The notes under the pieces were generated by a model. That model did not search any database and was not told the origin of the DNA. It worked only from the letters and a program-made list of their open reading frames with translations. DNA of 64,000 nucleotides from an uncultured Eubacteriales bacterium (GTDB lineage Bacteria > Bacillota > Clostridia > Oscillospirales > CAG-272): assembly GCA_934467435.1 (NCBI GenBank), contig CAKSLR010000001.1:67-64066 (forward strand), written 5' to 3'. The position numbers were made by a program, and so were the translations under genes. Every line of letters starts with the position of its first letter. Within the stretch, counting starts at the first letter, position 1. Below are positions 2,412 through 39,300 of the stretch, one piece after another.

Positions 2412-2942
2412 TTGCCGAACAATTATACCAAAGATTCGATCAAAAAAGCCTTTATCGAACTGCTCAACGAGCGCCCTCTCAACAAGATCAGCGTCAGAAG
2501 CATTGTGGATATCTGCAACATCAGCCGCAACACGTTTTATTACCATTACCAGGACGTGCCGCAGCTGCTGGAGGAAATCATCATTGAGTCGGCGGACACA
2601 CTGATTGCGCGCTACCCCACCATCGACTCGATCGGCGCGTGTGTAGACGAGGCATTTGCCTTTGCCCAGAAAAACAAGCGCGCCATTTACCACATCTACC
2701 ACTCGGTGGACCGGGATGCCTATGAAGAATTTCTGATGAAAATGTGCGACCACGTGGCACACACGCACATTGACGCCCTGCTTGCCGGACGCGGGATTGC
2801 GCCGAACGACCGCGAGGCGCTGATTCACTGCATGAAATACGTTTGTTTCGGCGCCTGCATCGACTGGACCAAAACCGGTATGAAAAGCAATATTGTGGAA
2901 GAATACCACCGCATTGTCGATCTGTTCCTGCGTGCCTATTGA
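2412..2942 (+). CDS. TetR/AcrR-family transcriptional regulator
   Basis: N-terminal HTH region ...SIKKAFIELLNERPLNKISVRSIVDICNISRNTFYYHYQDV... The ORF-track ATG (2343) lies upstream of the promoter. An in-frame TTG at 2412 sits 7 nt after AAGGAGGGGG. Confidence 0.75.
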   Translation: MPNNYTKDSIKKAFIELLNERPLNKISVRSIVDICNISRNTFYYHYQDVPQLLEEIIIESADTLIARYPTIDSIGACVDEAFAFAQKNKRAIYHIYHSVDRDAYEEFLMKMCDHVAHTHIDALLAGRGIAPNDREALIHCMKYVCFGACIDWTKTGMKSNIVEEYHRIVDLFLRAY

Positions 2943-2978
2943 GGGTTTTCCCCGATTTTCTATGACAATTCCGCACCT

Positions 2979-2999
2979 GTTGTCACAAATTGTGACAAC
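2979..2999. promoter_or_regulatory. Perfect 10-1-10 palindrome: candidate TetR operator, or stem of a weak terminator
   Basis: GTTGTCACAA-A-TTGTGACAAC, followed 4 nt later by TTTTTTT. It lies between the TetR stop and the first gene of the acpS/KS operon. Confidence 0.4.
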
Positions 3000-3075
3000 G
3001 GGTGTTTTTTTGCCTATTCCCTTGGCGGCGGTTTTTTGGTAGGATAGCGGTGTATGGTGAGAAAGGAGTTTTTTT

Positions 3076-3678
3076 ATGTATTCTGTGGTTCCCATGAAAA
3101 TTGCCAAAATCGGTCATATCGTTTCGGCGGTTTTTCTGTTTGCCCTGGGGCTGAGCCTGATTCTCTACCCCGATTTTTCGGTTCCCGTGGTAGAGAAGGT
3201 TTGCGGGGTCTATCTGATTTTATTCGGTGCCATCAAAATGGTGGGGTACCTCTCGCGGGATATTTACCGGCTGGCGTTCCAGTATGATTCGGTATTCGGC
3301 ATCATTCTGGCCGGCATCGGCATTGCGTTTCTTGCCCGCCCCGAATCCACACTGACCTTTGTTTCCATTCTGCTCGGGCTGGCGGTGTTCAGCGACGGCG
3401 TGATCAAAGTGCAGGTGGCACACCACGCCCGTAAATTCGGCATTGAAGCGTGGTGGGCGATTTTTCTGCTTGCCGTGCTGGCAGGCATCGGCGGGCTGTG
3501 CATTGTGATTCACCCCATGGAGGGCGCACGGGCGCTTGGCATTGTGCTGGGCGTGGTGCTGATGGTGGACGGCGTGATGAGCGCCCTGACCGTTCTGACC
3601 TCTGTAAAAATCAAGGAATACAGTGACCCGCGCATTGAAGTGACCTATATCACGTCGGACGGGGACGAAAAGAAATGA
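3076..3678 (+). CDS. Small multi-pass membrane protein (DUF308/HdeD-like)
   Basis: Six hydrophobic helices with repeated G-rich helix pattern. The stop overlaps the acpS start (ATGA at 3675-3678). Confidence 0.5.
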   Translation: MYSVVPMKIAKIGHIVSAVFLFALGLSLILYPDFSVPVVEKVCGVYLILFGAIKMVGYLSRDIYRLAFQYDSVFGIILAGIGIAFLARPESTLTFVSILLGLAVFSDGVIKVQVAHHARKFGIEAWWAIFLLAVLAGIGGLCIVIHPMEGARALGIVLGVVLMVDGVMSALTVLTSVKIKEYSDPRIEVTYITSDGDEKK

Positions 3679-4022
3679 GCGTTACCGACATCGGCATTGA
3701 CCTGGTCTCGGTCGGCAGATTTGCCGGGCGGGGCAAAGGTGTGGAAAAATACTTTCTTTCCCCGGCGGAGGGTGCGGAATTTGCCGCACTGCCGCCCGCC
3801 CGCCGCCCGCTTTACCTTGCTACCCACTGGGCGTGCAAAGAGGCGATTTTCAAAGCAACGGGCGACCGCAACTATACCGCTTATACCCTTTCCCACCGGG
3901 AGGACGGCAAGCCCTTTCTCGTCGGGCGCCCCGATCTTCTCATCTCCATCAGCCATGACAACGATTTCGTTGTGGTAATCATAGAAAAGACAGAAAGAAA
4001 TGAGGATTCCGAACATGAATGA
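3675..4022 (+). CDS. acpS: Holo-ACP synthase (group I 4'-phosphopantetheinyl transferase)
   Basis: 115 aa. IGIDLVSVGRF..., WACKEAIFKATG, GKPFL...ISISHD match the AcpS pattern. Confidence 0.85.
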   Translation: MSVTDIGIDLVSVGRFAGRGKGVEKYFLSPAEGAEFAALPPARRPLYLATHWACKEAIFKATGDRNYTAYTLSHREDGKPFLVGRPDLLISISHDNDFVVVIIEKTERNEDSEHE

Positions 4023-4257
4023 AAATGAAGTAAAAGCAAAAATCAAAGAAATGCTCTGCGACCGCCTCGGCATTGATGCCGACGCGCTCGGCTATGATAC
4101 CGTGCTGTTTGGCGACGGCATCGGGCTGGATTCGATCGACTCGCTGGAGATCATCTCCGCCATTGACGAAGAATACGGCGTTTCGATGACCGGTGTGGGC
4201 AAAGAACACTTCCGCAACATTGATGCACTTGCCGCCTACGTGGTTGCCAACGCCTGA
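4015..4257 (+). CDS. Acyl carrier protein (phosphopantetheine-binding)
   Basis: 80 aa from the ATG at 4015 (GAGGA upstream; overlaps the acpS stop). GLDSIDSLEIISAIDEEYGV contains the DSL Ser attachment motif. Confidence 0.85.
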   Translation: MNENEVKAKIKEMLCDRLGIDADALGYDTVLFGDGIGLDSIDSLEIISAIDEEYGVSMTGVGKEHFRNIDALAAYVVANA

Positions 4258-4300
4258 GAACGCGGGAACCTGAGAACGGAAAAGAAAAGGAAAAACGGAT

Positions 4301-6673
4301 ATGACGAACGAAAGAAACCGCTGTGTCATCACGGGTCTTGGGGTGATTTCCGCCATCGGCAACGATGTGCCAACCTGCTGGGAGAGTATTCTTTCGGCAA
4401 AGAGCGGCATTGACCACACGACCACGCTGGATACGGAAGGCTGCTATGCCGACTATGCGGCAGAGGTCAAGGGGGTAAACGATGCCGATTCGCCCCTTGA
4501 CCGCGCTACCGTGCTTTGCCTGCGGGCAGCCAAAGAAGCCCTGACCGATGCGGCGCTTCCCGATTTTGCGGGCAGTGCACGCGCCTCGGTCATCATGGGG
4601 AGCTGCGTGGGCGGCGGCCGCAGCATGGCTGCCTACTACCGTGGGGAAAAGACCCGGCAAAACGTACGGAACATGCCCATTTCCGCCATTGCCAACCATG
4701 TGGCATCGCTCTGCCACGCGGGCGGGGTGGTAACGAATGTGGCAAACGCCTGCGCGGCGGGCACCATCAGCATCGCCTATGCCTCCGACCTGATCCGGGC
4801 GGGCAGGGCGGATGTGGTGGTTGCCGGCGGGGCGGATGCGTTTTCCGCCGTCCCCTACTCCGGGTTTCTTTCGCTGCACGCGCTGGATGAAGAATCCTGT
4901 TCGCCCTTCAACCGCTCCCATGGCATTACGCTGGGTGAGGGCGCCGGTGCGGTGATTGTGGAATCTTATGCCCACGCGAAGGCGCGGGGCGCGCACATTT
5001 ACTGCGAGGTACTGGGCTCCGGTATCAGCAGCGACGCCTTCCACATCACGGCGCCCCGCCCGGACGGGGAGGGGCAGATGAGCGCCATCCGCGATGCCAT
5101 TGCCCACTCCGGTCTTGCGGCACAGGATGTGGATTACGTCAACGCCCACGGCACCGGCACGGCGAAAAACGACGAGGCGGAGTTCCTTTCCCTGCACACC
5201 ATTTTTGACGGGGAGCGGGACGGACTTTGCGTCAGTTCGACCAAAGCCATGACGGGGCACTGCCTCGGCGCGGCGGGGGCAATCGAATCGGTCTTTGCCA
5301 TCAAGGCGCTGGCGGAGGGTGTGGTACCCCCGACGCTCGGCTACACCGAAGAGGACCTTGCGGTACTGAAGGAAAAGGCAGGGCCCCTGAATTTCTGCCC
5401 CAATCTGCCGCACAAAGAAAAACTGCACACCGTGATGGATAACTCCTTTGCCTTCGGCGGTACGAACGCCAGCCTGCTCTTTTCGGACAAGGCAGGCGAG
5501 ATTCCCGATGCACCCGCGCGGGAGGATATCGTACTGACGGGCATCGGCATTGTCTCTCCGCTCGGAAACGGCAAAAACCGCTATCTTGCCGCCTGCTGCG
5601 GGGGCGAGACGATCGGGGCGGAAGGACGCTCTTCGGTCAGTGCGGCGGATTATGACGCGCTCGGGCTGAAAATGGCGTTTTACCGCAAACTGGACCACCT
5701 CAGCCAGTTGCAGGCAGTCTCGGGGCTGGATGCCCTGCGGGACGGCGGCTACACCGTGACCCCGGAGAACGCCAAGGAAATCGGCATCATCATCGGCACC
5801 TCCGAGGGGGCGCTGGGTCCGAGCTGCGAATTCCAGGAAATGATTGACGAAAAGGGGAACGCGGGCGGCAGCGCCTTCCGGTTCCCGAACACCGTTTATA
5901 ACGCGGCGGGCGGCTATCTTTCCATCTGCTCCGGCATCCGCGGTTACAATGTGACCGTGACCAACGGCGCCCAGTCGGGTCTGCAGTCGGCGGCATACGC
6001 CATGCAGGTCATCCGCAACGGGTGGGAAAGCGCCATGCTTGCCACCGGTACGGACGAAAACAGCGATATTATGACCGAACTCTACCGCTGCCTCGGTCCG
6101 GTTGCCGACCGGCGGGTTGCCCCTTATGCGGGGGAGGATACCATGACCCTCTCGGACGGCAGCGTGTCTCTTCTCCTGGAGACAGCCTCCTCCGCTGCGG
6201 CGCGCGGCGCGCGCCGCTACGGCAGACTGACCGGCTACGGCATGGGGCACGGCGATGTTCCCTTCGGGGAAGTGCGCGGTTCGGCGCGCGGGCTGTCGGA
6301 CGCCATCGAAGCCGCCCTTGCCGATGCGGGCATCGGCGCGGGTGAGATCGATGCGGTCATCGGGTTTGCCAACGGTCTGAGCGAAGTCGACGAAACCGAG
6401 GACAAGGTTCTTTCCCGCTTTGTGGATTCGGCGCGGGTGCCGGTTCTCACGGTGAAAGAACGGATGGGCGAGGGCAGAGCGGCATCCGCCGCACTGGCGC
6501 TGGCGCACGGGGCGCTCCTGCTTGCGGGAGAGTTGCCGAACGAGGGCGACGCTTATCTGACAAAGAACGGCAAAAAAGAAAAAACCACGGTACGCGGGGA
6601 GGACATCCGGCGTGTACTGCTGCTCTCTTACGCGCCGGGCGGTTCTTATACCGCGCTGGTGCTGGAAAAATAA
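4301..6673 (+). CDS. Fused beta-ketoacyl-ACP synthase (FabF-like, Cys-His-His) plus C-terminal Cys-less KS-like (CLF-like) domain
   Basis: 790 aa. N-terminal half: VANAC(151)AAG, VNAH(283)GTGT, TKAMTGH(320)CLGAAG, FAFGGTNASL. C-terminal half (about aa 405-790) has the same fold signature (IVLTGIGIVSPLG, VTVTNGA(557)Q(558)SGLQSAAYAMQVIRNG, ATGTDE), but the Cys and both His positions are replaced. Confidence 0.85.
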   Translation: MTNERNRCVITGLGVISAIGNDVPTCWESILSAKSGIDHTTTLDTEGCYADYAAEVKGVNDADSPLDRATVLCLRAAKEALTDAALPDFAGSARASVIMGSCVGGGRSMAAYYRGEKTRQNVRNMPISAIANHVASLCHAGGVVTNVANACAAGTISIAYASDLIRAGRADVVVAGGADAFSAVPYSGFLSLHALDEESCSPFNRSHGITLGEGAGAVIVESYAHAKARGAHIYCEVLGSGISSDAFHITAPRPDGEGQMSAIRDAIAHSGLAAQDVDYVNAHGTGTAKNDEAEFLSLHTIFDGERDGLCVSSTKAMTGHCLGAAGAIESVFAIKALAEGVVPPTLGYTEEDLAVLKEKAGPLNFCPNLPHKEKLHTVMDNSFAFGGTNASLLFSDKAGEIPDAPAREDIVLTGIGIVSPLGNGKNRYLAACCGGETIGAEGRSSVSAADYDALGLKMAFYRKLDHLSQLQAVSGLDALRDGGYTVTPENAKEIGIIIGTSEGALGPSCEFQEMIDEKGNAGGSAFRFPNTVYNAAGGYLSICSGIRGYNVTVTNGAQSGLQSAAYAMQVIRNGWESAMLATGTDENSDIMTELYRCLGPVADRRVAPYAGEDTMTLSDGSVSLLLETASSAAARGARRYGRLTGYGMGHGDVPFGEVRGSARGLSDAIEAALADAGIGAGEIDAVIGFANGLSEVDETEDKVLSRFVDSARVPVLTVKERMGEGRAASAALALAHGALLLAGELPNEGDAYLTKNGKKEKTTVRGEDIRRVLLLSYAPGGSYTALVLEK

Positions 6674-6694
6674 CAGAAAAAAGGAAAACAACTG

Positions 6695-7426
6695 ATGAAA
6701 GTGGCACTGGTAACGGGAGCCTCACGCGGGATCGGACGGGCATGCGCCCTGCGCCTGGCGCAGGACGGTTTCTGCGTGGTGGTCAACTACGCGCACAGCG
6801 AAAAAGAGGCTGCCGCGGTTCTGGATGAGATCCGCGCCGGCGGCGGTGAGGGGATGCTGTATCGTGCGGATGTCTCCGACCTCGATCAGGTCAAGGGGAT
6901 GATGCGCGAGGTGTTCCGCGCTTACGGACAGATGGATGTGCTGGTCAACAACGCCGGCATGGTACGGGATGAATACCTGCTGATGCTGAACCCCGACACG
7001 CTGGACGCCTGCCTGGATCTGAACGTCAAGGGATATTTCTACTGCACGCAACAGGCGGTATTAAAAATGTTCCGCCGCAAGTGCGGGACGGTGATTCACA
7101 TGTCCTCGGTCAGCGGGGAACTTGCCCTGGCGGGGCAAAGCGTTTACAGCGCCACCAAAGGTGCGGTGAACGCCATGACCCGCACCATGGCAAAGGAACT
7201 GGCGCCCTACGGCATCCGCGTCAACGCGGTGGCACCCGGCTTTATTGAAACCGAGATGCTGGACGCGCTGCCTGAAGAAAAGAAAAAAGAATACTTAAAC
7301 GCCATTCCCATGCACCGGCTCGGAAAGGTGGAGGACGTGGCGGGGCTGGTTTCCTTCCTCGCCTCCGATGCCGCCGCTTACATGACGGGGCAGGTACTGA
7401 CGCTGGACGGAGGCATTTCGCTGTGA
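6695..7426 (+). CDS. fabG: 3-oxoacyl-ACP reductase (SDR)
   Basis: TGASRGIG cofactor motif, NNAG, and the S...YSATKGAV catalytic triad region. Confidence 0.85.
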   Translation: MKVALVTGASRGIGRACALRLAQDGFCVVVNYAHSEKEAAAVLDEIRAGGGEGMLYRADVSDLDQVKGMMREVFRAYGQMDVLVNNAGMVRDEYLLMLNPDTLDACLDLNVKGYFYCTQQAVLKMFRRKCGTVIHMSSVSGELALAGQSVYSATKGAVNAMTRTMAKELAPYGIRVNAVAPGFIETEMLDALPEEKKKEYLNAIPMHRLGKVEDVAGLVSFLASDAAAYMTGQVLTLDGGISL

Positions 7427-7875
7427 TGAACATTTACGAAGTCAACCGCCGTCTGAAGCAGCGGCCGCCCTTTCAGATGGTGGAAAAGGTGAGCGAACTG
7501 ACCCCCGGCGAATCTGCCGTGGGGCACAAGACCGTATCGGTCAATGACCCGTGGTTTGCAGGTCACTTTCCCGGTGAGCCGATTCTGCCCGGCGTTCTGA
7601 TTGTGGAAAGCTGCGCGCAGCTCTGCTCCCTGACGGTGGAAGCGGACGGCACGGCGGAGGACAAATTCTACGTCCTTCTGAAAATCGACAATTTCAAATT
7701 TCTGCGCCCCATTCTGCCGGGTGATGTCATGGACATCACGGTGAAAAAGAAGAGTGGCGCGGGACCCCTTATCACCTTTGATGCGGTGGTATCGGTCGGC
7801 GGCACCGTGCACGCGAAGGGCGGTATTTCCTTTACCGCCATGGAGAAGAGCCGTCTGGACGAAGGAGAACACTGA
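7423..7875 (+). CDS. fabZ: 3-hydroxyacyl-ACP dehydratase (hotdog fold)
   Basis: PPFQMVEKV..., FAGHFPGEPILPGVLIVESCAQL. 4-nt overlap with fabG. Confidence 0.85.
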   Translation: MMNIYEVNRRLKQRPPFQMVEKVSELTPGESAVGHKTVSVNDPWFAGHFPGEPILPGVLIVESCAQLCSLTVEADGTAEDKFYVLLKIDNFKFLRPILPGDVMDITVKKKSGAGPLITFDAVVSVGGTVHAKGGISFTAMEKSRLDEGEH

Positions 7876-7876
7876 G

Positions 7877-8785
7877 ATGGAAAAAACGGCATTTCTCTTT
7901 GCCGGTCAGGGCGCGCAGAGCGTCGGGATGGGCAAAGATTTTTATGAAGAAAACGAAGCGGCACGCGCGGTGTTTGCGATGGGGGAACGACTTGCCCCCG
8001 GCATCACGGCGCTCTGTTTTGCGGGCGACAGTACGGAACTGAACCGCACCGAAAACACGCAGCCCGCCCTGTTTCTGACCGACCTTGCCATTGCCGCCGC
8101 GCTGCGTGCGGCGGGGGTGAGTGCGGACGGTGCGGCGGGCTTTTCGCTGGGGGAGATTCCCGCGCTTGCCTTTGCCGAAGTCCTATCGGAAGAAGAAGCG
8201 TTCCGCTTTGTACTGCTGCGCGGAAAGAGCATGGCAGCGGCAGCCGCCCGCCACGCGGGCGGCATGGCGGCAGCCCTGAAACTGCCGCCCGAACAGGTAG
8301 AGGAAATCTGCCGCCGCTTCCGTGAGATCTGGCCGGTCAACTATAACTGCCCGGGGCAGGTCTCCTGCGCGGGGAGTGCAGCGGAGATTGACGATTTCTG
8401 CGCCGCCGTCAAAGCGGCGGGGGGCAGAGCCGTCAAACTGCCGGTGAGCGGCGCGTTCCACACCCCGTATATGGAAGAAGCGGCACCCGCGCTGCGGGAA
8501 TTTCTTGCCGGCGCGGCGCTCGCGGCGCCCGCCATCCCGGTTTACGCCAACCGCACGGGCGAGCCTTACCCTGCCGACCCTGCGGAAATCACCGCGCGGC
8601 TGTGCGAGCAGGTTTTCTCCCCTGTGCTGTTTGAAAAGACGCTGCACCGGATGTGGGAGGACGGGTACCGCCGGTTCATCGAAGTCGGTGCGGGCAGCAC
8701 GCTCAGCGGCTTTGTGCGCCGTACCCTGCCCGATGCCGTTACGGTAACGGTGAACAACGTTGCCGCCATGGCGGCGCTCAACTGA
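7877..8785 (+). CDS. fabD: Malonyl-CoA:ACP transacylase
   Basis: Internal start MEKTAFLFAGQGAQSVGMG. GFSLGE nucleophile motif and GAFHTPYM. The ORF-track start at 7754 overlaps fabZ and is rejected. Confidence 0.85.
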   Translation: MEKTAFLFAGQGAQSVGMGKDFYEENEAARAVFAMGERLAPGITALCFAGDSTELNRTENTQPALFLTDLAIAAALRAAGVSADGAAGFSLGEIPALAFAEVLSEEEAFRFVLLRGKSMAAAAARHAGGMAAALKLPPEQVEEICRRFREIWPVNYNCPGQVSCAGSAAEIDDFCAAVKAAGGRAVKLPVSGAFHTPYMEEAAPALREFLAGAALAAPAIPVYANRTGEPYPADPAEITARLCEQVFSPVLFEKTLHRMWEDGYRRFIEVGAGSTLSGFVRRTLPDAVTVTVNNVAAMAALN

Positions 8786-8798
8786 CGGAGGTTCGCCG

Positions 8799-9611
8799 AT
8801 GGAAAACAACCGCAAAAGAACGCTGGACGACGTCCGCCGTTCGGAGAACACCAAAACCTGCCCGCGCTGCAAAGAACCGGTGCGCGAGGCGGTGCTTGCC
8901 GATACCTATTACATCTGCCCCCTTTGCGGGGCGCATTTTCCGATTCCCGCCCGCCTGCGGGCGGAGTACCTCTCGGACACCGGGCGGTTTTCGGAGTTAT
9001 TCGGGGAGGAGATCTTCACCGACCCGCTTGCCTTCCCCGACTATGAGGAAAAATTCCGCTCCTCCATGCAGAAGAGCGGCGAAAACGAAGGGGTGCTTTG
9101 CGGCACCACACAGATCGACGGTCACCACGCCTGCCTGTTTGTGATGAACCCCGAGTTCATGCTCGGTTCGATGGGCACGGTGGTGGGCGACCGCATTACC
9201 GCCCTGTTTGAATACGCGACCGAGCACCGTCTGCCCGTGATCGGCTACACGGTATCGGGCGGCGCGCGGATGCAGGAAGGGATGCTTTCGCTCATGCAGA
9301 TGGCAAAGGTTTCCGCCGCCGTGAAAAAACACAGCGAAAGCGGGCTTTTGTACATTGTGGGCATTACCGACCCGACCATGGGCGGGGTGACCGCCAGTTT
9401 TGCCATGCTGGGAGACGTGATTTTTGCCGAACCCGGCGCCCGCATCGGCTTTGCCGGAAAACGGGTGGTGGAGCAGGTCACGGGTGAAAAACTGCCCGAC
9501 AGTTTTCAGACTGCCGAGTTCCAACTCGAAAACGGGTTTCTTGACGAGATTGTAGAGCGGAAGGAACAGCGCGCGCACCTTGGCGTGCTGCTTGCCATCC
9601 ACGAAAGATAA
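8799..9611 (+). CDS. accD: Acetyl-CoA carboxylase carboxyltransferase beta subunit
   Basis: N-terminal Zn ribbon CPRCKEP...CPLCGAHF. GGAGG at 8787-8791 precedes the ATG at 8799. Confidence 0.85.
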   Translation: MENNRKRTLDDVRRSENTKTCPRCKEPVREAVLADTYYICPLCGAHFPIPARLRAEYLSDTGRFSELFGEEIFTDPLAFPDYEEKFRSSMQKSGENEGVLCGTTQIDGHHACLFVMNPEFMLGSMGTVVGDRITALFEYATEHRLPVIGYTVSGGARMQEGMLSLMQMAKVSAAVKKHSESGLLYIVGITDPTMGGVTASFAMLGDVIFAEPGARIGFAGKRVVEQVTGEKLPDSFQTAEFQLENGFLDEIVERKEQRAHLGVLLAIHER

Positions 9612-9622
9612 AGGAGAGAGCG

Positions 9623-10483
9623 ATGACCGAAGAACTGACGGTATATGATAAAATCTGCCGCACCCGGCAGAACGGACGTGCCACGGCGGCGGATTATATG
9701 CTATCGGGCGCCATTTTCACCGATTTCTGCGAGTTGCACGGCGACCGCTGCTTTGGGGACGACCACGCCGTGATCGGCGGCATTGCCCTGCTGCACGACT
9801 TGCCGGTAACGGTGGTCGGCATTGAAAAGGGGCGGGATATCAGCGAGCGGCTGTACCGCAACTTCGGCTGTGTGCTGCCCGAAGGATACCGCAAGGCGCT
9901 GCGCCTGATCCGGGAGGCGGAAAAGTTCCACCGCCCCGTTATCTGCTTTGTGGATACGCAGGGCGCCAACTGCGGCAAGGGCGCGGAGGAGCGCGGCGCG
10001 GGCGAGGCGATTGCCGAAAACCTGTTTGAACTGAGCGACATCCGCACCCCCATCATCACAGTCATGATCGGGGAAGGCGGCAGCGGCGGGGCGCTTGCCC
10101 TGGCGGTTGCCGACCGTGTGTGGATGCTGCGCAACGCCTATTATTCGGTCATTTCGCCCGAGTCGTGCGCCAGCATTCTGTTCAAGGATCCCCACCGCGC
10201 GCCCGAGGCGGCAGAGCACCTGCACCTGACGGCGGACGATTTGCTGGATATGCAGATTGTGGAGAAGGTGATTGAGGAGCCGGATGACTTCCGCGACAGC
10301 GCCGCCCGCGCCAACTTCATGGCATCGCTTGGCGATGCGCTGTACGCCGAACTGCGTACCCTTGCCCGACGCAAGCCCGAAAAACTGGTTGCCGAACGCT
10401 ATGAAAAATACCGCAAGATCGGACGTTACGATTCCTACGGCACGCGGAGCGGACTTTGGAGGTGGCGGCTGGGTGGAAACTGA
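9623..10483 (+). CDS. accA: Acetyl-CoA carboxylase carboxyltransferase alpha subunit
   Basis: FCELHGDRCFGDDHAVIGGIA..., FVDTQGANCG, GEGGSGGALA. Confidence 0.85.
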   Translation: MTEELTVYDKICRTRQNGRATAADYMLSGAIFTDFCELHGDRCFGDDHAVIGGIALLHDLPVTVVGIEKGRDISERLYRNFGCVLPEGYRKALRLIREAEKFHRPVICFVDTQGANCGKGAEERGAGEAIAENLFELSDIRTPIITVMIGEGGSGGALALAVADRVWMLRNAYYSVISPESCASILFKDPHRAPEAAEHLHLTADDLLDMQIVEKVIEEPDDFRDSAARANFMASLGDALYAELRTLARRKPEKLVAERYEKYRKIGRYDSYGTRSGLWRWRLGGN

Positions 10484-11240
10484 CGCACCGAAGAAAAAAG
10501 TTCTGGTTCTGAACGGCAGCCCGCACAAAGAAAAGAGCAGCACCATGGTTGTCACCCGTGCGTTTCTCAATGGGTTGACGAGAAAGGGAACCTACGAGGC
10601 GGAGACCATCTCCGTTGCCGCCCTGAAGGTGACCCCCTGCATGGGCTGCCTTTCATGCTGGGGACGCACCGAGGGCGAATGTGTCATCCGCGGGGATGAC
10701 GTTGCCGCCGTCAAGGAAAAAATCCTTGCGGCGGATCTTTTGCTGCTCAGTTTTCCCCTTTACTTTTTCGGGGTGCCGGGGCAGATGAAACTGCTCGGCG
10801 ACCGCCTGCTTTCGATGATGAAGACCTACCGCGGGCAAAAGGTACCTCCGGACGGTTCGCCCGCGCACGGGATGCGCGATCCGCGACCCGCGCAGAAAAT
10901 TCTTCTGATTTCGGGCTGCGCCTATGTGGAGACCGGGGAGGTTTACCAACCGACCCTCAAGCAATGCGACCTGATTTGCGGAAAGGGGGGCTATACTGCC
11001 GTGCTCTGCCCGCAACTGAAAACCATGCTGGATAACGGCGGCACGCGGGTGGAGCGGACGCTTGCCCGCTTCCGTGCGGCGGGAGAAGAATTTGAGAGAA
11101 GCGGAGCGCTTTCCGATGCGACCCTTGCTGCACTGACCCGTCCGCCGTTTTCCGATACGGTTTACAAGACCATCCTTGCCGAGGTGTGGCGCAAGGAGCG
11201 AGAGGAAGGAGAAAAAGCCCGTGGTACATCTTGCGATTGA
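10473..11240 (+). CDS. Flavodoxin-fold NAD(P)H/FMN oxidoreductase with compact 4-Cys motif (iron-sulfur flavoprotein, Isf-like)
   Basis: KKVLVLNGSPHKEKSSTM (FMN_red-type N-terminus). CMGCLSCWGRTEGEC is C-x2-C-x2-C-x7-C (nt 10638-10682). The GTG at 10473 sits 9 nt after GGAGG and overlaps the accA stop. Its own stop overlaps the plsX start. Confidence 0.65.
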   Translation: METDAPKKKVLVLNGSPHKEKSSTMVVTRAFLNGLTRKGTYEAETISVAALKVTPCMGCLSCWGRTEGECVIRGDDVAAVKEKILAADLLLLSFPLYFFGVPGQMKLLGDRLLSMMKTYRGQKVPPDGSPAHGMRDPRPAQKILLISGCAYVETGEVYQPTLKQCDLICGKGGYTAVLCPQLKTMLDNGGTRVERTLARFRAAGEEFERSGALSDATLAALTRPPFSDTVYKTILAEVWRKEREEGEKARGTSCD

Positions 11241-12192
11241 TCTTCTCGGTGCCGATACGCCGGAGGAGGAACTTTGCCGCGGGGCGGTGACTGCCCTGCG
11301 GAAAAACCCCGACCTTTACCTGCACCTGTTCGGCCATGCCGCGCGGTTGCAGCCATTGTTAGCCGAAAGTAAAATTTCGGTTGACCATTATGAAATTGTG
11401 GACTGCCCCGGTACGGTGACAAACGAGGACGCCTCTCTGACTGCCTACGAAAAAAAAGATGCCTCTATCGTGCGCGCCATGCAACTTGCCAAGGATCGGG
11501 CGGATGTGTGCGGGGTCATTACCTGCGGTTCTACCGGCGCGGTGCTGGTATCCGCGATCATGATTCTCGGTAAAATCCGCGGCATGCGCCCGGTGCTGGC
11601 AGTAGAACTGCAAAGCGAGGACGGCAAGCCGCTGCTGCTGCTGGACTGCGGCGCAAACATCGACAGCCGCGCGGAACTGTTGCTTTCATTTGCCCGGCTG
11701 GGGAACGCTTATATGAAGAGCAAAGGGCAGGACGCGCCGCGGATTGCCCTGCTTTCCAACGGTAGGGAGGATACAAAAGGCTGTGAAACCGTCAAGGAAG
11801 CAAATGCGCTGCTGCGCGCGACGGAAGGGTTGCACTTTATCGGCAATATTGAGGCGACCGATGCCCTGCGTGGGGAAACGGATGTCATCGTTTGCGACGG
11901 GTTCCACGGGAATATTCTGCTGAAAAGCATCGAAGGTACGGCAAAGTCCGTGCTCCGTCAACTGCAGAAGGCAAACATGGGTGACGGCGCACAGGCGGCG
12001 CTGGATGAAGTCTATCGCCGATATGATTTCAACGCGATGGGCGGGGCAGTTCTGCTCGGCGTCAACAAACTGGTGATGAAGGGACACGGCGCGGCAAAGG
12101 GGGATGCGATTGCAAACATGATCGCCCAGGCATACCCGCTTGCCGATCACGGTCTTGCCGACCGCATCCGGCAGATTTACGCCGGGGCGTAA
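11221..12192 (+). CDS. plsX: Phosphate acyltransferase PlsX
   Basis: AIDLLGAD, GSTGA and DCGAN motifs. GTG start at 11221 after GAAGGAG. Confidence 0.85.
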   Translation: MVHLAIDLLGADTPEEELCRGAVTALRKNPDLYLHLFGHAARLQPLLAESKISVDHYEIVDCPGTVTNEDASLTAYEKKDASIVRAMQLAKDRADVCGVITCGSTGAVLVSAIMILGKIRGMRPVLAVELQSEDGKPLLLLDCGANIDSRAELLLSFARLGNAYMKSKGQDAPRIALLSNGREDTKGCETVKEANALLRATEGLHFIGNIEATDALRGETDVIVCDGFHGNILLKSIEGTAKSVLRQLQKANMGDGAQAALDEVYRRYDFNAMGGAVLLGVNKLVMKGHGAAKGDAIANMIAQAYPLADHGLADRIRQIYAGA

Positions 12193-14312: not shown

Positions 14313-16826
14313 CTATTTTCCCTGCTCCCGCCAGAACCGGCGGAACAGAACGCCGAGCGCGGACGGATCCCCCACGAATTTGAGATGGTGCCAGTGGTTC
14401 GGAATCATACCCCGCCAAAGGGGGTCGGCAAAACGGTCGTCAATCAGCAGAAGAGTGCCGCGGTCTTCTTCCCCGCGGATGACCCGCCCCGCCGCCTGCA
14501 GCACGCGGTTCATGCCGGGGTAGATGTAGGCATACTGCTTGCCTTCTTCATAAATTTCCTGGTAGTAATCGCAGATCGCCTCGCGCTCGGGGGATAGTTG
14601 AGGCAGGCTGACCCCGACAACGGCGGCACCGATCAGGCGGCTGCCGGCGAGGTCGATGCCCTCGGCAAACACGCCGCCCGTCACGCAGAAGCCGACCAGC
14701 GTTTCGCCGGGGTCCGGCGCAAAGCGGGAAAGAAATTCCTCCCGCGCCCGCTGGGGCGCACCGCGCTTTTGCACGGCAATTTTCACAGCGGGATACGCAC
14801 GGTGGAAGGCAATGCAGATTTCCTCAAGGTAGGCAAACGAAGGGCAGAACACAAAATAGTTCCCCACATGGGCGCTGACCATTTCGTAAATTGCCGCGGC
14901 AATGGCGGGGGCGCTTTCGGTGCGCGCGGTAAAGCGGGTACTGATCTGATCCATGACCGCCACCGAAAGATGTTCTTCTTCAAAGGGGGAATCGAGGAGC
15001 AGTTCCTCATCCTCCGCCCGCCCGCCGAGCACCGTACGGTAAAAGGGCAATGGGGCAAGCGTTGCCGAAAAGAGGACGGCGCTCTTTCCGAGATCCAGAC
15101 GGGCGCTGAGCACCTCGGCAGGGTCAAGGCAGACCGTGCGCACACGGTACTGCGCATCCTCCCGCAGGTAAAAGGTGACAAAACGATCGGAATACAGTTC
15201 CGCACGGGTGGCAAAATTCCGGAGCGGATAGCAGAATGCGCGCAGTTTTTCCCGCAGGGAGAGCGGCGTGCGGCGATCCTGCGCGGCGCGCAGTCCTTCC
15301 TCCGCCAGGGCGGCAACGGCAAAAAACAACTCTTCCGGCGCCGCTTTCTGCCGTGTGAAGGCGTGCGTCACGCCATCGGCATCCTCATAGGGGCGCTCGC
15401 CCGAGAGCGCCGCTTTGACCGTGCGCAGAAACAGGCGGCGCACCTCCTCCGCGCGGGAAAGGAGGGGGGAGGCAGACGCCTCCTCCCGCAGTGTGGCGAC
15501 CAGGGCGCCGAGGGTGCGGGAATCGAGTTCCCCGCTGTACATTTCCCGCGCCCGTTCGAGAAGATCGTGCGCCTCATCGATCAGGAAGCAGTAGTTCCCG
15601 TCCTCCGAGAAGTAGCGGCGCAGGTACATTCGGGTATCGAACAGATAATTATAATCCCCGACGATCACATCGCAAAACCGGCTGTAGCGCAGGGAAAGTT
15701 CGTAGGGACAGACGCCGAAGCGGGCGGCAACCGCCCGCACCTCCGCCTCCCCCGCCACGGGCGTGGGGGAAGAAAGCAGCGCAAGCGCCGCGCTCTCCAG
15801 ACGCTCCCCGCCCGCACGGGCAAAGCGGCAGGGGGCAAGCGAATCGCGGCAGAGCATTTTTTCGGTACAGATGCGCTCTTTTGCCGTAAGCACGATGGCG
15901 CGCAGTTTGCCGCCCGCGGCGGCAAAGCGCCCGAGGGCATCCGCCGCTGCGCGGGCGGTGGTGGTTTTGGGGGTGAGGTAAAACACGCGGTCACACAGCC
16001 GCTCCCCGAGGGCACGCAGGGCGGGATACAGCACCCCCGCCGTTTTGCCGGTGCCGGTGGGGGCGCAGGCATACAGACGGCGGTGATGGCGGATGGTGCG
16101 GTAGGTTGCCTGAATCAGATCCTCCTGCCCCATGCGCGGGCGGGGATAGGGAAAGCGCAGGGTACGCAGGGTGGGCAGCCGTTCCGCCACCCGGGCAACC
16201 TCGGCTACCGCCGCGTGGGAGAGCGTTGCCCGCACACGGGCAAAAAAGGTGTCGGCTGCCGCACGGGTCACCGTTTCCTCAAACGTTCCCTCCCGCCCGT
16301 CACGGGGAGAGCGGAGCAGCGCCCGCACGTGAACGGCGGGCGCCGTCTCCGTCGAAAAATACAGGCAGGCAAGCAAAAACAGTTCCCCGCGCACATGGCG
16401 CAGAGTCTCTTTGTCGGGGGATGCCGGGTCCCCGTTCACCGTGCGAACCACCGTCAGCGTAGCGGAAAGCCCCGCCATAGCACCGCCGTGCGGCAGAAGG
16501 ACACCGTCCGCCGATCCGAAGAGGCAGAAGCGCCTCTCCCCTTCCTCAAATTCCAGCGAGAAGGAACGCGCCTCCCCGATACCGCCCGGCAGCGCGCCGG
16601 ACGATGGCAGCGGAGGAGTGCCTTCTTCCCCCTCCCGCGGAATTTCGCTTGCCAGCCGGCAAAGGGAGAGCGAAACCAACTCCCCGAGAGAGACGCGGAT
16701 GCACCCCTCATTCTCGTCATAATACAAAATTGCACGCCCCCTTCGGAATCTGCGATCCAAAATTGTAAACAATTTGAAAACGCCCTTGTCAAAACGCAAA
16801 AGATGTGTTATAATACCCCTCGTCAT
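14313..16826 (-). CDS. XPD/Rad3/DinG-family Fe-S DNA helicase with uncharacterised N-terminal domain of about 230 aa
   Basis: Walker A CAPTGTGKT, IDEAHDL box, and four Cys between them (ICTEKMLCRDSLAPCRF...GVCPYE). The start is uncertain: ATG at 16826 or TTG at 16727. The ORF-track start 16904 runs through tRNA-Val. Confidence 0.75.
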   Translation of the reverse strand: MTRGIITHLLRFDKGVFKLFTILDRRFRRGRAILYYDENEGCIRVSLGELVSLSLCRLASEIPREGEEGTPPLPSSGALPGGIGEARSFSLEFEEGERRFCLFGSADGVLLPHGGAMAGLSATLTVVRTVNGDPASPDKETLRHVRGELFLLACLYFSTETAPAVHVRALLRSPRDGREGTFEETVTRAAADTFFARVRATLSHAAVAEVARVAERLPTLRTLRFPYPRPRMGQEDLIQATYRTIRHHRRLYACAPTGTGKTAGVLYPALRALGERLCDRVFYLTPKTTTARAAADALGRFAAAGGKLRAIVLTAKERICTEKMLCRDSLAPCRFARAGGERLESAALALLSSPTPVAGEAEVRAVAARFGVCPYELSLRYSRFCDVIVGDYNYLFDTRMYLRRYFSEDGNYCFLIDEAHDLLERAREMYSGELDSRTLGALVATLREEASASPLLSRAEEVRRLFLRTVKAALSGERPYEDADGVTHAFTRQKAAPEELFFAVAALAEEGLRAAQDRRTPLSLREKLRAFCYPLRNFATRAELYSDRFVTFYLREDAQYRVRTVCLDPAEVLSARLDLGKSAVLFSATLAPLPFYRTVLGGRAEDEELLLDSPFEEEHLSVAVMDQISTRFTARTESAPAIAAAIYEMVSAHVGNYFVFCPSFAYLEEICIAFHRAYPAVKIAVQKRGAPQRAREEFLSRFAPDPGETLVGFCVTGGVFAEGIDLAGSRLIGAAVVGVSLPQLSPEREAICDYYQEIYEEGKQYAYIYPGMNRVLQAAGRVIRGEEDRGTLLLIDDRFADPLWRGMIPNHWHHLKFVGDPSALGVLFRRFWREQGK
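16786..16814 (+). promoter_or_regulatory. Promoter of tRNA-Val
   Basis: TTGTCA (16786-16791), 17-nt spacer, TATAAT (16809-16814). Confidence 0.6.
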
Positions 16827-16903
16827 GGAGGCATAGCTCAGTTGGTTAGAGTACTTGCTTGACATGCAAGGGGTCACTGGTTCGAGTCCAGTTGTCTCCA
16901 CCA
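16827..16903 (+). tRNA. tRNA-Val (anticodon GAC)
   Basis: Acceptor GGAGGCA/TGTCTCC, D-loop AGCTCAGTTGGTTAGAGT, anticodon stem CTTGC/GCAAG with loop TTGACAT, T-loop GGTTCGAGTCC, and encoded CCA. Confidence 0.9.
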
Positions 16904-18028: not shown

Positions 18029-18918
18029 AAGAATGGATCTATCGCCACGGTATCCTGTTTGCCGCCCTGCTGTTCTTCCCTTTCTTTGCGCTGTTTTTGT
18101 TTTTCCTCTACCGCCGGATGCTGGACCCCTTTACCGTTACGCTGCTTTCGCTTTGGCTGCTTTGGCTGGTGATGCTGCCCGGGCGGCGGGCGGGACAGGT
18201 GCTTTACCGGGATGCGTACCTGGCACTGTACCGGGACTGCGACCCGTTTACCTATGTGGAAAAGATGCAGTTTCTTTCGGAAAAGCGCTCCCTGCCCGCC
18301 GCACGCCGCCTGATGCTTTCGACCAACCTGGCGGTGGGCACCGATGCCTGCGGCAAGACCGAGGATGCCCTGCGCCGGTGCCGGGAATGCCTTGACACTG
18401 CGGAAAGGGAGAACCCCGCCGTGCGGTATGTCATTTACCTGACCTACGCCTGCATCACCGCACACAGCGAAGCACACCGGGACGAGTTGCCCCACATGAT
18501 CGCGCAGTTGGAAGCGGGGCTTTCCCAGATCGGGCAGGGGGCGGCGGAGCGGATGCAGTTCCGCGAAAGCATTGCCACCATCCGGGATGCCCACCGCCTT
18601 TGGACGGGGGAATATGACGGGCTGCGGAAGCGGTTTCTTGACCGTTTGAACGCCATTTGCGATACCCCCGCGCAAAACTACCCGAAAATGCTTGCCTGCA
18701 TCTGGCTCTCGCGCCTGTACGACCGCCTCGGCGAGTACGAAAAGGCGGGCGCCATGTACCGCTATGTGGAGGAAAACGGCTACCGCCTTGCCATCGCGCG
18801 GGAGGCAAAGATTTCCGGGGAGCGCTGCCGCCGCCTGGCGGAAGAAGAAAAGTGCGCCGCCCCTGCCGCAGGCGAGCCGGAGGCTGCCGCGCCGGAGGAA
18901 CCCCCGGCAATATTCTGA
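18025..18918 (+). CDS. Hypothetical membrane-anchored protein
   Basis: ATGA overlap with the DMT gene. Two N-terminal TM helices are followed by a helical soluble part. No family recognised. Confidence 0.5.
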   Translation: MKEWIYRHGILFAALLFFPFFALFLFFLYRRMLDPFTVTLLSLWLLWLVMLPGRRAGQVLYRDAYLALYRDCDPFTYVEKMQFLSEKRSLPAARRLMLSTNLAVGTDACGKTEDALRRCRECLDTAERENPAVRYVIYLTYACITAHSEAHRDELPHMIAQLEAGLSQIGQGAAERMQFRESIATIRDAHRLWTGEYDGLRKRFLDRLNAICDTPAQNYPKMLACIWLSRLYDRLGEYEKAGAMYRYVEENGYRLAIAREAKISGERCRRLAEEEKCAAPAAGEPEAAAPEEPPAIF

Positions 18919-36300: not shown

Positions 36301-39300
36301 TTAATCCCATTGATCCGCAAAGAACGGAGTTCCGTCATCGGTCTCGACATCCTTCCCGTAAATGCGGCGGATGGCGCCGCGACGGAAGAAATCTTCGGCA
36401 AGTCCGTAATCGGGATAGGTATTGCCCGAAAATTCCACGTCCTCGCAAACCGTAAGATAGACCGTATATTTCGGGTGGGTGGCATCCTCCGGCGTAGCGC
36501 CCTCCGCAATGCCGCCGAACCGCCCGAAGCGGTTATCCTTTACCGTGACCCCCCGCACGCTGTTCAGCGCCAGGGCGTAGGTGTTATTGCGGGAAACCAT
36601 GACATTACCGATGATGCGGATGCCGGAATGAAACACCTGCCGCCCCTCCCGCGGCTGCGTGCAAAGCCCTGCCACCGAGATGGTTGCCTGCTGCACATCC
36701 TCGCCCGTGCGGAGATAGCAGCCGGTGTTTTCCATGTAGTTCTCGGAGATTTCCAGATTTTCAAACATCCCGGATTCGCCCCAATCGGTGCCCTGGTGGG
36801 CAAGTATGGCAGCCATGCCGAGATTGACGAACGAGCAGTGCGTCACCACCCCGTCCGACGCTTTCAGCACCAGCCCGCGCGCGCGGGCGTTGCGGACCAG
36901 GCAATTTTCAAACCGGTAGCCGGACGAGGAGCGGTTGCGGTTATCCACGCACACCTTCGGGTCAGTGGTGACGGTGGAAGAAAGATCGATGCCGACAAGA
37001 AGAGTGGGGTCAAACGCCTCGCGCGGCACGGTGACCTCATACACCGTATCGGTACCGCCGTAGACATTTTTTTCGGTGCGGAGAGGAACGGATGCGCTTT
37101 GCACGCGCCCGTCGCATACCACCATGCCGTCTGCCGTGTAGGCATAGAGCCGGTCGCCCACGCGGAAGGGGGCGCAGACGCTGCCCGCTACGCTGCCGTT
37201 GCGCTGCATGACGGCGGAAAGGTTGTTTTTGTAGCGCAGGACGACAGACCCGCCCTGTTCCTCATACCCGCAAAGGCGGCCATGGGCGGAGGTCTGGTTG
37301 GTGCCGTCGTCACACATCCCTTCAAAAAGGCAGGAGATGGCTTGCAGCCCCCTGGTGCTGTGGTTCGAGTGCGTGGCATCGACCGACGAGCAGAGCGGCG
37401 GCGTGCCGCGGCAGTTCCCGTCCGCATCCAGATACACGCCGAACGAAACGCCGTATTTCTCTTCCAGCGCGCGGTAACGGTCATACATTTCCCGGGAAAT
37501 CCGCGGGGCAAAGCCGGGGGTATCCCACAGGCGCAGGAGGGTGCAGCCCTCCCCCTCCACGTATCGGTCATTGTAGCAGAATCCGGCAGCGCCCAGCACC
37601 GTGACATCCTCCAGCCGGGGGGAGACGGCATCGGTCACCCACAGGACGGCACCGCCGACCCCGCGGCAGACAATGCTGTCGCCCACCGAAATCATCCGGT
37701 AAAGGGAGGCGTGATAGAAAAGGGTCAGAATGCCGGTTTCTTCGTCATACGAAATCACCTTGCCCCCCATATCGGCATACGGTTCGGCGTGCCCCGGGCG
37801 GTAGCCGTAGGTGGTGGAAGTCAAGCCGGTGAAGGAATAATACCTGCCGTCCAGCCAGTTTTCTATCATGCCGGCGCCGGCGATGGCCTGAATCTGCCCG
37901 TTTTCTTTGCCGATAACAACCATCTGCCCCGTGGAATTTTCCGTATGGTCGAGCATCCCGCCCTTCAGGGTAAAGCCGTCGGCGCCCTGCACATGAATGG
38001 TGGCGGTTTGATAGGAGGATTTTTGCCAATAGGTGCCGTAGGCGTAGACAACGGTGTTCTTTTTTGTCCCTGTGCCGAAAGTCACGGTGGCATCCAGCGC
38101 GTAGGCGCCGGGGAGGAGATAGACCGCATCCCGCTCCCGGCTCTCCTGTTCGAGAAATTCCCGCAGGCTGCGGCAGGCGCCCTCCCGTTCCCGCACGGCT
38201 CTGCGCACGGGCATGGTCAGGAAAAGTTCCTTATCCACCTTCGGCAGGAGGTCTTCATTGGCGCCGACACCGGGATAGGTACCGACGGCAGTGACCGTAT
38301 CTCCGCTGAGGTTTTGGTTGAACCCCAGATCGCGGGCGGCGGCGACGGTATTCTGATTGGCAAGGAGATAGTTGTTCTTCGCATAATACAGATTCCCTGC
38401 CAGCGTATTTTCGACAAAATAAGCGCTGTGGCAATCTTCGATCTTCGCATCGGTTGCCGTATTGCGTATGCAGGAGATATTTTTGGCGCAAGACAGGCGC
38501 AGGGTGGCGCCGGTACCCGCCATCAGGCGGTTACCCGCCAAAAGGAGGTTGGTTGCCCCCTGCGCCGTGAGCGCGCCGCGGAGCGTGGAGGCGCTCAGGC
38601 GGGAATCCCCCGCCGCAAGAACCACCGACCCGGCGGGAGAGGAAAAATAGCACCGATCGACATAAAAATCACTGCCGGAGGCGGAAAATGCGCACGCGCC
38701 GGCGCCGAACGCCGAGGCATACACGGTGGCGCCGGTCACTGCCTCGGCGGCAAATGCGGTACCGGTTGCCACAGCGCGGCAACCGGAAAGCGTCAGGTCC
38801 GTGCAGCCGGCGTGAAACGAAAATCCGTTGGTGCCGATGGCTTCCACCCCTTCCAGCACCAGCCCGTCGGAAGACGAAACTTCCATCGCGCTCCCGCTGC
38901 CCGCAGTGTTGACCCAGGTCAGGTCGGAAAGCGTGATATTCCGGGCGGCACGCACGGAAAGGGGGAAGTTCGCGAGAATCACCGCGCCGCCGAACGAGTA
39001 GGTACGACCGGAGACGCTTTCGATGGTGTAGCCGTCACCGCTGACGCGATAAACTTTGTTTTCCAGCGAACCGCTGCGCACCAGAGCGCGCAACTCGGAC
39101 GTCGTGATCTCTACGGTTCCGGCGGCGGTGCGACCGAGCAGGGGGAACCGATCGGCGGCGAGGTCGGTGCCGATCCCTTCGGTCGGGGTGTAGCCGCCGT
39201 TATCGCGGTTGCCGAGGGAAACCGGGGTATAAGTGCCTGCATAGGACGGCAGAACGGGAACATCCGGCTGCGGCTCTTCCGGTTTTTCATCGGGGTTTGG

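Follow-up and report, generated by a model that had tools for sequence, protein, structure and literature searches.

The reduction of enoyl-acyl carrier protein (enoyl-ACP) is the most variable step of bacterial fatty acid synthesis and also its commonest drug target. A 2022 review of the enoyl-ACP reductases (ERs) recognises only the enzymes of the short-chain dehydrogenase/reductase (SDR) type, namely FabI, FabL, FabV and their relatives, and the TIM-barrel enzyme FabK (PMC9260719). An operon of eleven genes at positions 3076-12192 of a 64-kb stretch of DNA from an uncultured Eubacteriales bacterium (contig CAKSLR010000001.1; the whole stretch is hereafter referred to as the window) encodes a type II fatty acid synthase (FAS) accompanied by neither the initiating enzyme FabH nor any of these reductases, and it poses the question of how such a synthase would start its chains and reduce their double bonds. 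The operon is read here, with slightly more than even confidence, as a self-contained non-canonical type II FAS which provides saturated or mostly saturated acyl-ACP for membrane lipids, in which a fused ketosynthase (KS-KS') primes itself and a flavodoxin-like flavoprotein serves as the ER. These two proteins probably stand in for FabH and for FabI/FabK.

The pathway type itself is already known. What the literature searched leaves undescribed is the combination of a free-standing fusion of a ketosynthase (KS) with a partner resembling a chain-length factor (CLF) and a flavodoxin-fold candidate ER with a four-cysteine motif, conserved in at least 536 species-representative genomes. A flavodoxin-fold and possibly iron-sulfur-dependent ER would, if true, represent a new, non-homologous solution for enoyl reduction, and a FabH-free, self-priming KS-CLF would, if true, be a second unusual feature of the same pathway.

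Proposed initiation without FabH and the fused ketosynthase

With canonical type II FAS the cluster shares an ACP, the malonyl-CoA:ACP transacylase FabD, a FabF-type KS with a Cys-His-His active site, FabG, FabZ, the carboxyltransferase subunits of acetyl-CoA carboxylase (ACC) and a link to PlsX. It differs in the lack of FabH and of FabI, FabK, FabL or FabV, in the fusion of its KS to a catalytically dead KS, in its divergent ACP and in the presence of a flavodoxin-like flavoprotein at the place where the ER would be expected. A canonical clostridial example has the order fabH-acpP-fabK-fabD-fabG-fabF-accB-fabZ-accCDA.

Absence was examined in two ways. Pfam models were matched to essentially all sizeable open reading frames (ORFs) of the window, and tblastn searches were performed with FabK, FabI and FabH queries, each of which scores over its NCBIfam equivalog cut-off (the FabH query is that of E. 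coli and the FabK query passes TIGR03151). The neighbourhoods searched, those of 164 loci together with the window, amount to about 2.4 Mb. Pfam detected no FabH-type protein (3-ketoacyl-ACP synthase III, KAS III; PF08541/TIGR00747-type) in the 64-kb window; across the window and the 164 loci the FabH query gave weak matches only, all of them within KS-KS', and the FabK query gave none. The FabI query matched only the FabG of the cluster, its sole SDR, in the window, and for the first 85 sequences the strongest matches listed were all to the cluster's own FabG, with no genuine FabI match. A first-pass annotation of this DNA had reported that the 64 kb holds no FabH-type KS, which both methods bear out, and no recognisable ER, which is correct for the known families FabI, FabK, FabL and FabV in the 64 kb and fails for the conserved flavoprotein, a candidate ER, which the same annotation had named as Isf-like but given no role. 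Extrapolating from these neighbourhoods, FabH and FabK would be missing from the rest of the genome as well.

The 790-aa protein KS-KS' (4301-6673, plus strand; assigned by Pfam and NCBIfam) carries two ketosynthase domains. The KS half (4301-5500, plus strand) is a FabF-type condensing enzyme that scores 410.6 bits against the FabF subfamily model NF005589 (cut-off 387) and is 38% identical to B. subtilis FabF in a structural alignment; its active-site residues Cys151, His283, Lys315 and His320 are intact and invariant in 121 family members. The KS' half (5501-6673, plus strand) is FabF-derived, catalytically dead and resembles a CLF. In the alignment to E. coli FabF, Cys163 is replaced by Ala557, His303 by Phe689 and His340 by Glu724, and Lys335 is retained as Lys719. 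In the same 121 members the KS' residues Phe689, Glu724, Arg726 and Gln558 are invariant or nearly so, and many pocket residues of this half are still nearly invariant. In sequence KS' matches FabF (E 1e-24) better than it does the actinorhodin CLF (1tqy_B, E 1.2e-11), and it therefore originated by duplication of FabF and not from an actinomycete CLF; chains of PDB entry 9s5h, unnamed FabF-type synthases, are also among its sequence matches.

An AlphaFold (AF2) model presents the whole protein as a pseudo-dimer with a predicted template modelling score (pTM) of 0.93. The best full-length PDB match of the model is the KS-CLF didomain of PfaC (6riw; template modelling (TM) score 0.81 over 905 columns, 19% identity), and the remaining top matches span one half only. 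KS-KS' is thus predicted to fold as an intramolecular KS/CLF pseudo-dimer of the PfaC kind. In both proteins a single chain joins an active KS to an inactive KS-like domain behind it, the two being packed as a pseudo-dimer; the proteins differ in their setting: PfaC is a multidomain megasynthase with dehydratase (DH) domains and PfaA, PfaB and PfaD partners, whereas KS-KS' stands alone with discrete FabG and FabZ enzymes. The polyunsaturated fatty acid (PUFA) system uses a flavin ER, PfaD, and no ER of the FabK/PfaD type is found near the window cluster.

Gln558 was considered as the classical glutamine of CLF and KSQ proteins, and this was rejected as the alignment to E. coli FabF places it at Cys+1; the KSQ-type signature, in which Gln replaces the active-site Cys, is absent from KS', where that position is Ala557. 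Since Gln558 lies at Cys+1 and the positions of both catalytic histidines are occupied by Phe and Glu, KS' is unlikely to be a decarboxylase on its own, and priming is assigned to the intact KS half within the pseudo-dimer.

Initiation by other means than FabH has been met elsewhere. FabY of Pseudomonas aeruginosa is a KAS I/II-type initiator which condenses acetyl-CoA with malonyl-ACP in place of FabH, and FabH is thus dispensable in some type II FAS; FabY differs from KS-KS' in not being a fusion of a KS with a dead KS. A direct precedent for FabH-independent priming by a KS/dead-KS pair is provided by amxFabF2/amxFabFmut of the ladderane cluster of anammox bacteria, a KS/CLF-like heterodimer that decarboxylates malonyl-ACP and initiates fatty acid synthesis (bioRxiv 10.64898/2026.05.19.726425). 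This pair shares with KS-KS' a FabF homologue and a triad-less FabF homologue, with Cys changed to Val or Thr and His to Asn, Glu or Cys where KS' has Ala, Phe and Glu (bioRxiv 10.64898/2026.05.19.726425). The anammox proteins are separate polypeptides in a cluster with radical SAM enzymes, whereas KS-KS' is one 790-aa chain among ordinary FAS genes, with no radical SAM enzyme. By analogy with this pair, KS-KS' may prime itself by decarboxylation of malonyl-ACP. Full-text searches of the literature found no description of this fused KS in Clostridia; the statement of the first-pass annotation that no precedent exists was nevertheless too strong in view of the fused KS-CLF of PfaC (6riw) and the malonyl-ACP decarboxylation by the anammox FabF/dead-FabF pair.

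The flavoprotein as a candidate enoyl-ACP reductase

The tenth gene of the operon (10473-11240, plus strand) encodes a 255-aa flavodoxin-like protein with the flavin mononucleotide (FMN) reductase fold (PF02525 and PF03358) that has no NCBIfam match; no other non-canonical gene of the cluster is conserved as strictly. Four cysteines in the arrangement C56-x2-C59-x2-C62-x7-C70 (CxxCxxCx7C) are invariant in 40 homologues, as are some 30 further positions. Iron-sulfur flavoproteins (Isf) combine a flavodoxin-like FMN domain with a 4Fe-4S cluster bound by a compact CX2CX2CX4-7C motif. We take the spacing of the four cysteines to be that of this 4Fe-4S motif, and a [4Fe-4S] cluster is probably held by them. 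The Isf of Methanosarcina shares both the FMN domain and the compact motif with the present protein and differs in being a stand-alone protein of oxygen and peroxide detoxification, whereas the present one is a member of a FAS operon. No chain described as an iron-sulfur flavoprotein occurs among the 52 PDB matches of the family profile.

The AF2 model of the flavoprotein (predicted local distance difference test, pLDDT, 92.6) has an AzoR/NQO1-like fold, and the nearest structures by Foldseek are FMN-dependent azoreductases and two-electron reductases of the NQO1 type. By family profile the best solved relative is FLR (7d38, E 2.6e-10), the next matches being about 1000-fold weaker; profile positions 9-111 align to FLR residues 3-105, the Cys-rich insert included. 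FLR of Flavonifractor plautii is an ene-reductase of the flavodoxin/WrbA fold that reduces the C=C bond of alpha,beta-unsaturated carbonyl compounds via a hydride from FMNH- (PMC7862272). The two proteins share an FMN domain of the flavodoxin/WrbA type, an identically placed Cys-rich insert and an extension at the C-terminus. They differ in length (310 aa for FLR, 255 aa for the flavoprotein), the match being confined to about 100 N-terminal residues (FLR 3-105), and in that the substrates of FLR are free flavones, not ACP thioesters. The flavone-binding tail of FLR, with His271, Ile275, Thr279 and Lys282 (PMC7862272), lies outside the matched stretch. The link between the flavoprotein and FLR is real but weak. 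A specific structural tie between the two was also considered and rejected, as only the sequence profile places FLR first.

The wider family was surveyed by an exhaustive profile search, which returned 246 representatives of the flavoprotein at E <= 1e-30. Many of the distant relatives are fusions of 350-715 aa with a C-terminal SCP2 lipid-binding domain (seven of the ten scanned), and in one the flavoprotein domain is followed by a GDSL lipase domain; these fusions point to hydrophobic, acyl-type substrates in the wider family. The contigs of the distant SCP2 fusions are 2-3 kb long, and the sole neighbour seen on them is a PadR regulator (locus L085). A second gene of the Flavodoxin_2/FMN_red type, of 228 aa, was observed at 18042-18728 of locus L083, directly downstream of plsX and on the opposite (minus) strand; it may be a paralogue of the flavoprotein of the cluster.

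The enoyl-ACP reductase activity of the flavoprotein is proposed from these relationships together with its place in the cluster. With FabK, a flavin-mediated ping-pong ER that replaces FabI in Clostridia and streptococci (PMC9260719), the flavoprotein is proposed to share its function alone. The folds differ, FabK being a TIM barrel from the nitronate monooxygenase family and the flavoprotein having a flavodoxin-like fold with the Cys4 motif, and the flavoprotein has no sequence relation to FabK. Full-text searches of the literature found no tie between a flavodoxin-like or Isf-like protein and enoyl-ACP reduction.

In the pathway proposed here, AccD and AccA would form malonyl-CoA together with a biotin carboxylase and a biotin carboxyl carrier protein encoded elsewhere in the genome, and FabD would place the malonyl group on the dedicated ACP previously activated by the holo-ACP synthase AcpS. 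The KS half of the pseudo-dimer would elongate the chain and also prime it, by decarboxylation of malonyl-ACP to acetyl-ACP, so that FabH would not be needed; the dead KS' half would shape the acyl tunnel. Ketoreduction would be carried out by FabG and dehydration by FabZ. The flavoprotein, with FMN and probably a [4Fe-4S] cluster as cofactors and with electrons from NAD(P)H or reduced ferredoxin, would reduce trans-2-enoyl-ACP in place of FabI/FabK. PlsX would convert the finished acyl-ACP to acyl-phosphate for phospholipid synthesis. Of this scheme, the genes, the intact and lost active sites, the modelled folds and the linkage of the genes in hundreds of genomes are observations, whereas the reduction of enoyl-ACP by the flavoprotein, its Fe-S cluster, the self-priming and the lack of FabH and FabK in the remainder of the genome are inferred.

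More tentatively, and with somewhat less than even weight, we suggest that the Cys4 flavoprotein forms a new structural class of ER (FMN plus [4Fe-4S], perhaps with electrons from ferredoxin), and that more than 500 clostridial species of gut and rumen, devoid of FabH, FabI, FabK, FabL and FabV, depend on it as their only ER and on KS-KS' as their only synthase for initiation and elongation. If true, pathway prediction from metagenome-assembled genomes would change, because automated annotation would score the FAS of these species as incomplete, and commensals spared by narrow-spectrum antibiotics directed at FabI or FabK would be suggested. It could also bear on the finding that a FabK inhibitor given to mice left their Clostridia abundant (PMC10543012).

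Conservation of the cluster and its possible alternative roles

Relatives of the KS-KS' fusion number in the thousands (55-74% identical), and the fusion is present in at least 536 species-representative genomes, which span Oscillospirales, Christensenellales and Lachnospiraceae from gut and rumen. Cultured carriers include Ruminococcaceae bacterium FB2012, Coprococcus hominis, Eubacterium sp. MSJ-21 and Lachnospiraceae bacterium G41. The public annotation of the fusion is the generic 'beta-ketoacyl-ACP synthase family protein'. Locus contents were counted by mapping the proteins of the window on the best 80 of the 536 KS-KS' genomes, which are labelled Clostridiales, Christensenellaceae, Oscillospiraceae, Ruminococcus and Lachnospiraceae. 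Some carriers (including L006, L024 and L040) are labelled Treponema sp., Acidiphilium, Coriobacteriaceae or Akkermansia muciniphila; as their versions are 59-69% identical to those of Clostridia, these labels are probably errors of binning or labelling and not instances of horizontal transfer.

ACP, KS-KS', FabG, FabZ and the flavoprotein constitute an invariant core. Of the 80 KS-anchored loci, 69 have the flavoprotein, and in the other 11 the contig ends before the place expected for the lineage, so that it is present in all 69 loci with a contig of sufficient length. It occupies three positions: behind AccA, which is the arrangement of the window, immediately downstream of FabZ, or, in Lachnospiraceae, upstream of ACP. 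In the reciprocal test, 80 metagenome loci were retrieved through the flavoprotein (46-63% identity) and 79 have neighbouring cluster genes, the exception being a 1.7-kb contig which bears the flavoprotein alone. The remaining genes are less constant: FabD occurs in 47 of the 80 KS-anchored loci, AccD in 42, AccA in 40, a TetR homologue adjoining the cluster in either orientation in 35, and PlsX, following the flavoprotein, in 25 as well as in most of the flavoprotein-anchored loci. The gene for the DUF308 membrane protein (10/80, close relatives only) is lineage-specific, and AcpS is found at the window's position in 3/80. The first-pass annotation had guessed the carriers, related Clostridia, correctly; as for gene content, the five-gene core is invariant and the other genes vary between loci. 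The AcpS and DUF308 genes that it had listed with the operon are indeed present in the window, although they are not conserved parts of the cluster.

This strict association bears upon the view that the cluster is a polyene-type type II system, similar to those for aryl polyenes (APE) or to the cyl/granadaene clusters, in which no enoyl reduction takes place and a conjugated polyenoyl chain is passed to lipid assembly. Such clusters likewise have a KS with a CLF-like partner, a ketoreductase (KR), DH, acyltransferase (AT) and ACP and no canonical ER, and the present cluster has a KS-CLF-like pair with KR, DH, AT and ACP and none of the known ER families. APE clusters also carry a lysophospholipid-acyltransferase-like gene, and a gene of this kind is seen in some of the present variants. 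They differ in their ApeI-type or extra dehydratases and their tailoring and export genes, and in having no acc genes, plsX or conserved flavin reductase. The dehydratase of the window passes the FabZ equivalog cut-off and stays under the ApeI-like threshold (22 against 28.5 bits), accDA and plsX lie within the operon, and none of the APE/cyl accessory genes (a second DH, glycosyltransferase, LolA/MMPL-type exporter, ammonia-lyase, ABC transporter or CylE/F/K-like gene) is found in the annotated neighbourhoods. The premise of this view, which the first-pass annotation had put forward on the strength of a missing reductase, is undermined, because a flavin reductase-fold protein is strictly kept in the cluster (69/69 KS-anchored and 79/80 flavoprotein-anchored loci) and its best profile relative is an ene-reductase. 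A polyene product is considered very improbable, and the other option of the same annotation, a non-canonical housekeeping FAS, is favoured by the evidence.

Variation among the lineages bears on two further explanations. The Christensenellales-type operon has the order AcpS, ACP, KS-KS', FabG, FabZ, flavoprotein, AccB, AccC, AccD, AccA, FabD and comprises all de novo FAS functions except for FabH and a known ER; at the Christensenellales-type locus L014 AccB and AccC lie inside the cluster (14566-16888). It could be supposed that the genes form the elongation set of an ordinary housekeeping FAS, with FabH and a canonical ER, likeliest FabK, encoded elsewhere, and that the flavoprotein is an accessory with possible roles in electron transfer, redox protection or a FabX-like dehydrogenase/isomerase step that adds double bonds. 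A role in desaturation is conceivable because no evident means of making unsaturated fatty acids is encoded in the cluster, and some FAS genes are evidently dispersed, as accB and accC are outside the operon in the window. FabK is, moreover, reported for most Clostridia (PMC10543012). Against such a division of the pathway, neither FabK nor FabH occurs in the roughly 2.4 Mb that surround 164 clusters, the flavoprotein always stays with the cluster, and the Christensenellales-type operon has complete ACC, FabD and ACP yet neither FabH nor a known ER. Canonical clostridial clusters, in addition, carry fabK and fabH within the fab operon. This explanation is considered unlikely, although of appreciable weight.

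The Lachnospiraceae versions have a PlsC-like acyltransferase gene (PF01553) between the flavoprotein and ACP (L060 6908-9540; L072 8113-9581). In Coprococcus hominis (L060) the cluster ends after FabZ, without fabD and acc genes, and a Fe-ADH_2 gene resembling glycerol-1-phosphate dehydrogenase lies upstream (NF002022 234 bits, under the cut-off); in Lachnospiraceae bacterium G41 (L072 14676-16373) AccD and AccA are fused in one 565-aa protein. A look-up of one representative of the flavoprotein led to the same kind of cluster, with the order patatin, PlsC-like acyltransferase, ACP, KS-KS', FabG, FabZ, FabD, AccD, AccA, flavoprotein. Patatin-like phospholipase genes flank the cluster in two lineages (L014 19539-20381; L087 and L088 1-1429), once together with the PlsC-like acyltransferase, and are a further link to glycerolipid remodelling.

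In Lachnospiraceae the system may be a specialised second synthase. Applied to the operon of the window as well, the proposal would be that the cluster works beside a canonical FAS with its own ACP and makes acyl chains of a certain type or length, destined for a certain membrane lipid; the length would be set by the KS-CLF, and the flavoprotein would act as the private ER of the cluster. Specialised systems, among them ladderane synthesis, PUFA synthases and type II polyketide synthases, typically use KS-CLF pairs; the divergent ACP, the minimal Lachnospiraceae variants (flavoprotein, PlsC-like acyltransferase, ACP, KS-KS', FabG and FabZ, without fabD/acc) and the patatin and PlsC-like genes that flank other variants all agree with it. 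The operon of the window lineage, however, has fabD, accD, accA and plsX, normally single-copy housekeeping genes, and an AcpS gene adjoins that of the ACP. For the cluster in general this proposal appears rather improbable.

The presence of fabD, accDA and plsX inside the operon likewise supports the reading preferred here, that of a self-contained FAS with a self-priming KS-KS' and the flavoprotein as its ER. Several observations weigh against it. By Foldseek FLR ranks 44th (TM 0.45), with azoreductases and quinone reductases first, so the structural similarity of the flavoprotein is generic, and no member of the flavodoxin-like fold is known to reduce enoyl-ACP. FabK or FabI, and FabH, could be encoded outside the 2.4 Mb searched, with the flavoprotein then an accessory, and neither AccB nor AccC was found by Pfam among the sizeable ORFs of the 64-kb window. 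The ACP scores far under the AcpP cut-offs, which fits a carrier dedicated to a second system better than a housekeeping one; and those Lachnospiraceae clusters which lack fabD/acc and have PlsC-like and glycerol-1-phosphate-dehydrogenase-like genes look like a specialised lipid pathway beside a normal FAS.

Organisation of the operon and its surroundings

The family assignments of the eleven genes were made by Pfam and NCBIfam, and the same eleven genes were obtained by an independent gene call on two identical metagenome scaffolds, in agreement with the packed plus-strand order given by the first-pass annotation. The intergenic spacings, from -20 to +43 bases, show the genes to be tightly packed. 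The start codons of four genes were refined by the independent gene call: those of ACP (4015), FabD (7877), AccD (8799) and PlsX (11221).

The first gene (3076-3678, plus strand, as are all those that follow) encodes a DUF308/HdeD-like membrane protein (PF03729, E 6.5e-18). It is followed by AcpS (3675-4022; PF01648, E 4.4e-11; slightly over the TIGR00556 cut-off), in whose translation the GIDLV, KEAxxKA and ISISH motifs are all readable, and by the 80-aa ACP (4015-4257; PF00550) with the serine motif LDSIDSL. No other protein of the cluster is as well conserved as the ACP, with 81-90% identity among close relatives, and it is under every NCBIfam AcpP cut-off (best 45 bits against 70). Downstream of KS-KS' lie FabG, a 3-oxoacyl-ACP reductase (6695-7426; TIGR01830 275.7 bits; subfamily model NF009466 passed with 234.9 against 222), and FabZ, a 3-hydroxyacyl-ACP dehydratase (7423-7875; equivalog NF000582 passed with 118.9 against 113). 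FabD (7877-8785; PF00698, E 1.3e-44; TIGR00128 232.7 bits against a cut-off of 260.9) precedes the ACC carboxyltransferase subunits beta, AccD (8799-9611; TIGR00515 294.3 bits against 317), and alpha, AccA (9623-10483; PF03255, E 3.6e-104; NF041504 313 bits against 300). The operon closes, after the flavoprotein, with the phosphate acyltransferase PlsX (11221-12192; PF02504, E 5.4e-69; TIGR00182 239.9 bits against 243.4), the exit to phospholipid synthesis. Curated NCBIfam FAS cut-offs are thus passed by FabZ at the equivalog level and by the KS half, FabG and AccA with subfamily models, and FabD, AccD and PlsX are slightly under their equivalog cut-offs. Assignments to cispentacin-type (AmcB/E/F) and to flexirubin-type systems were also tried and rejected, the NCBIfam scores being far under the cut-offs.

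Upstream of the operon lies a gene for a TetR-family regulator (2412-2942, plus strand; PF14278 and PF00440; 176 aa in the gene call), which is likely to be the regulator of the cluster. Between it and the first gene of the operon, a scan for terminator-like elements and a reading of the sequence revealed a palindrome (2973-3005, plus strand) with a 15-bp stem and the core TTGTCACAAATTGTGACAA, followed by a run of T; it could be the terminator of tetR, a TetR operator before the operon, or both.

Among the larger ORFs of the window, three have no Pfam match, namely 44304-47945 (plus strand, 1213 aa), 39833-42157 (minus strand, 774 aa) and 48393-49934 (minus strand, 513 aa), and a fourth, 36301-39516 (minus strand, 1071 aa), matches a beta-helix repeat only. 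All four may encode surface proteins; the ORF of 1213 aa may instead be a shadow ORF, because its codon-position GC pattern is unusual. The rest of the 64 kb is chromosomal housekeeping, with uvrA, uvrB, addB, alr, rsmG, pfk and malQ.

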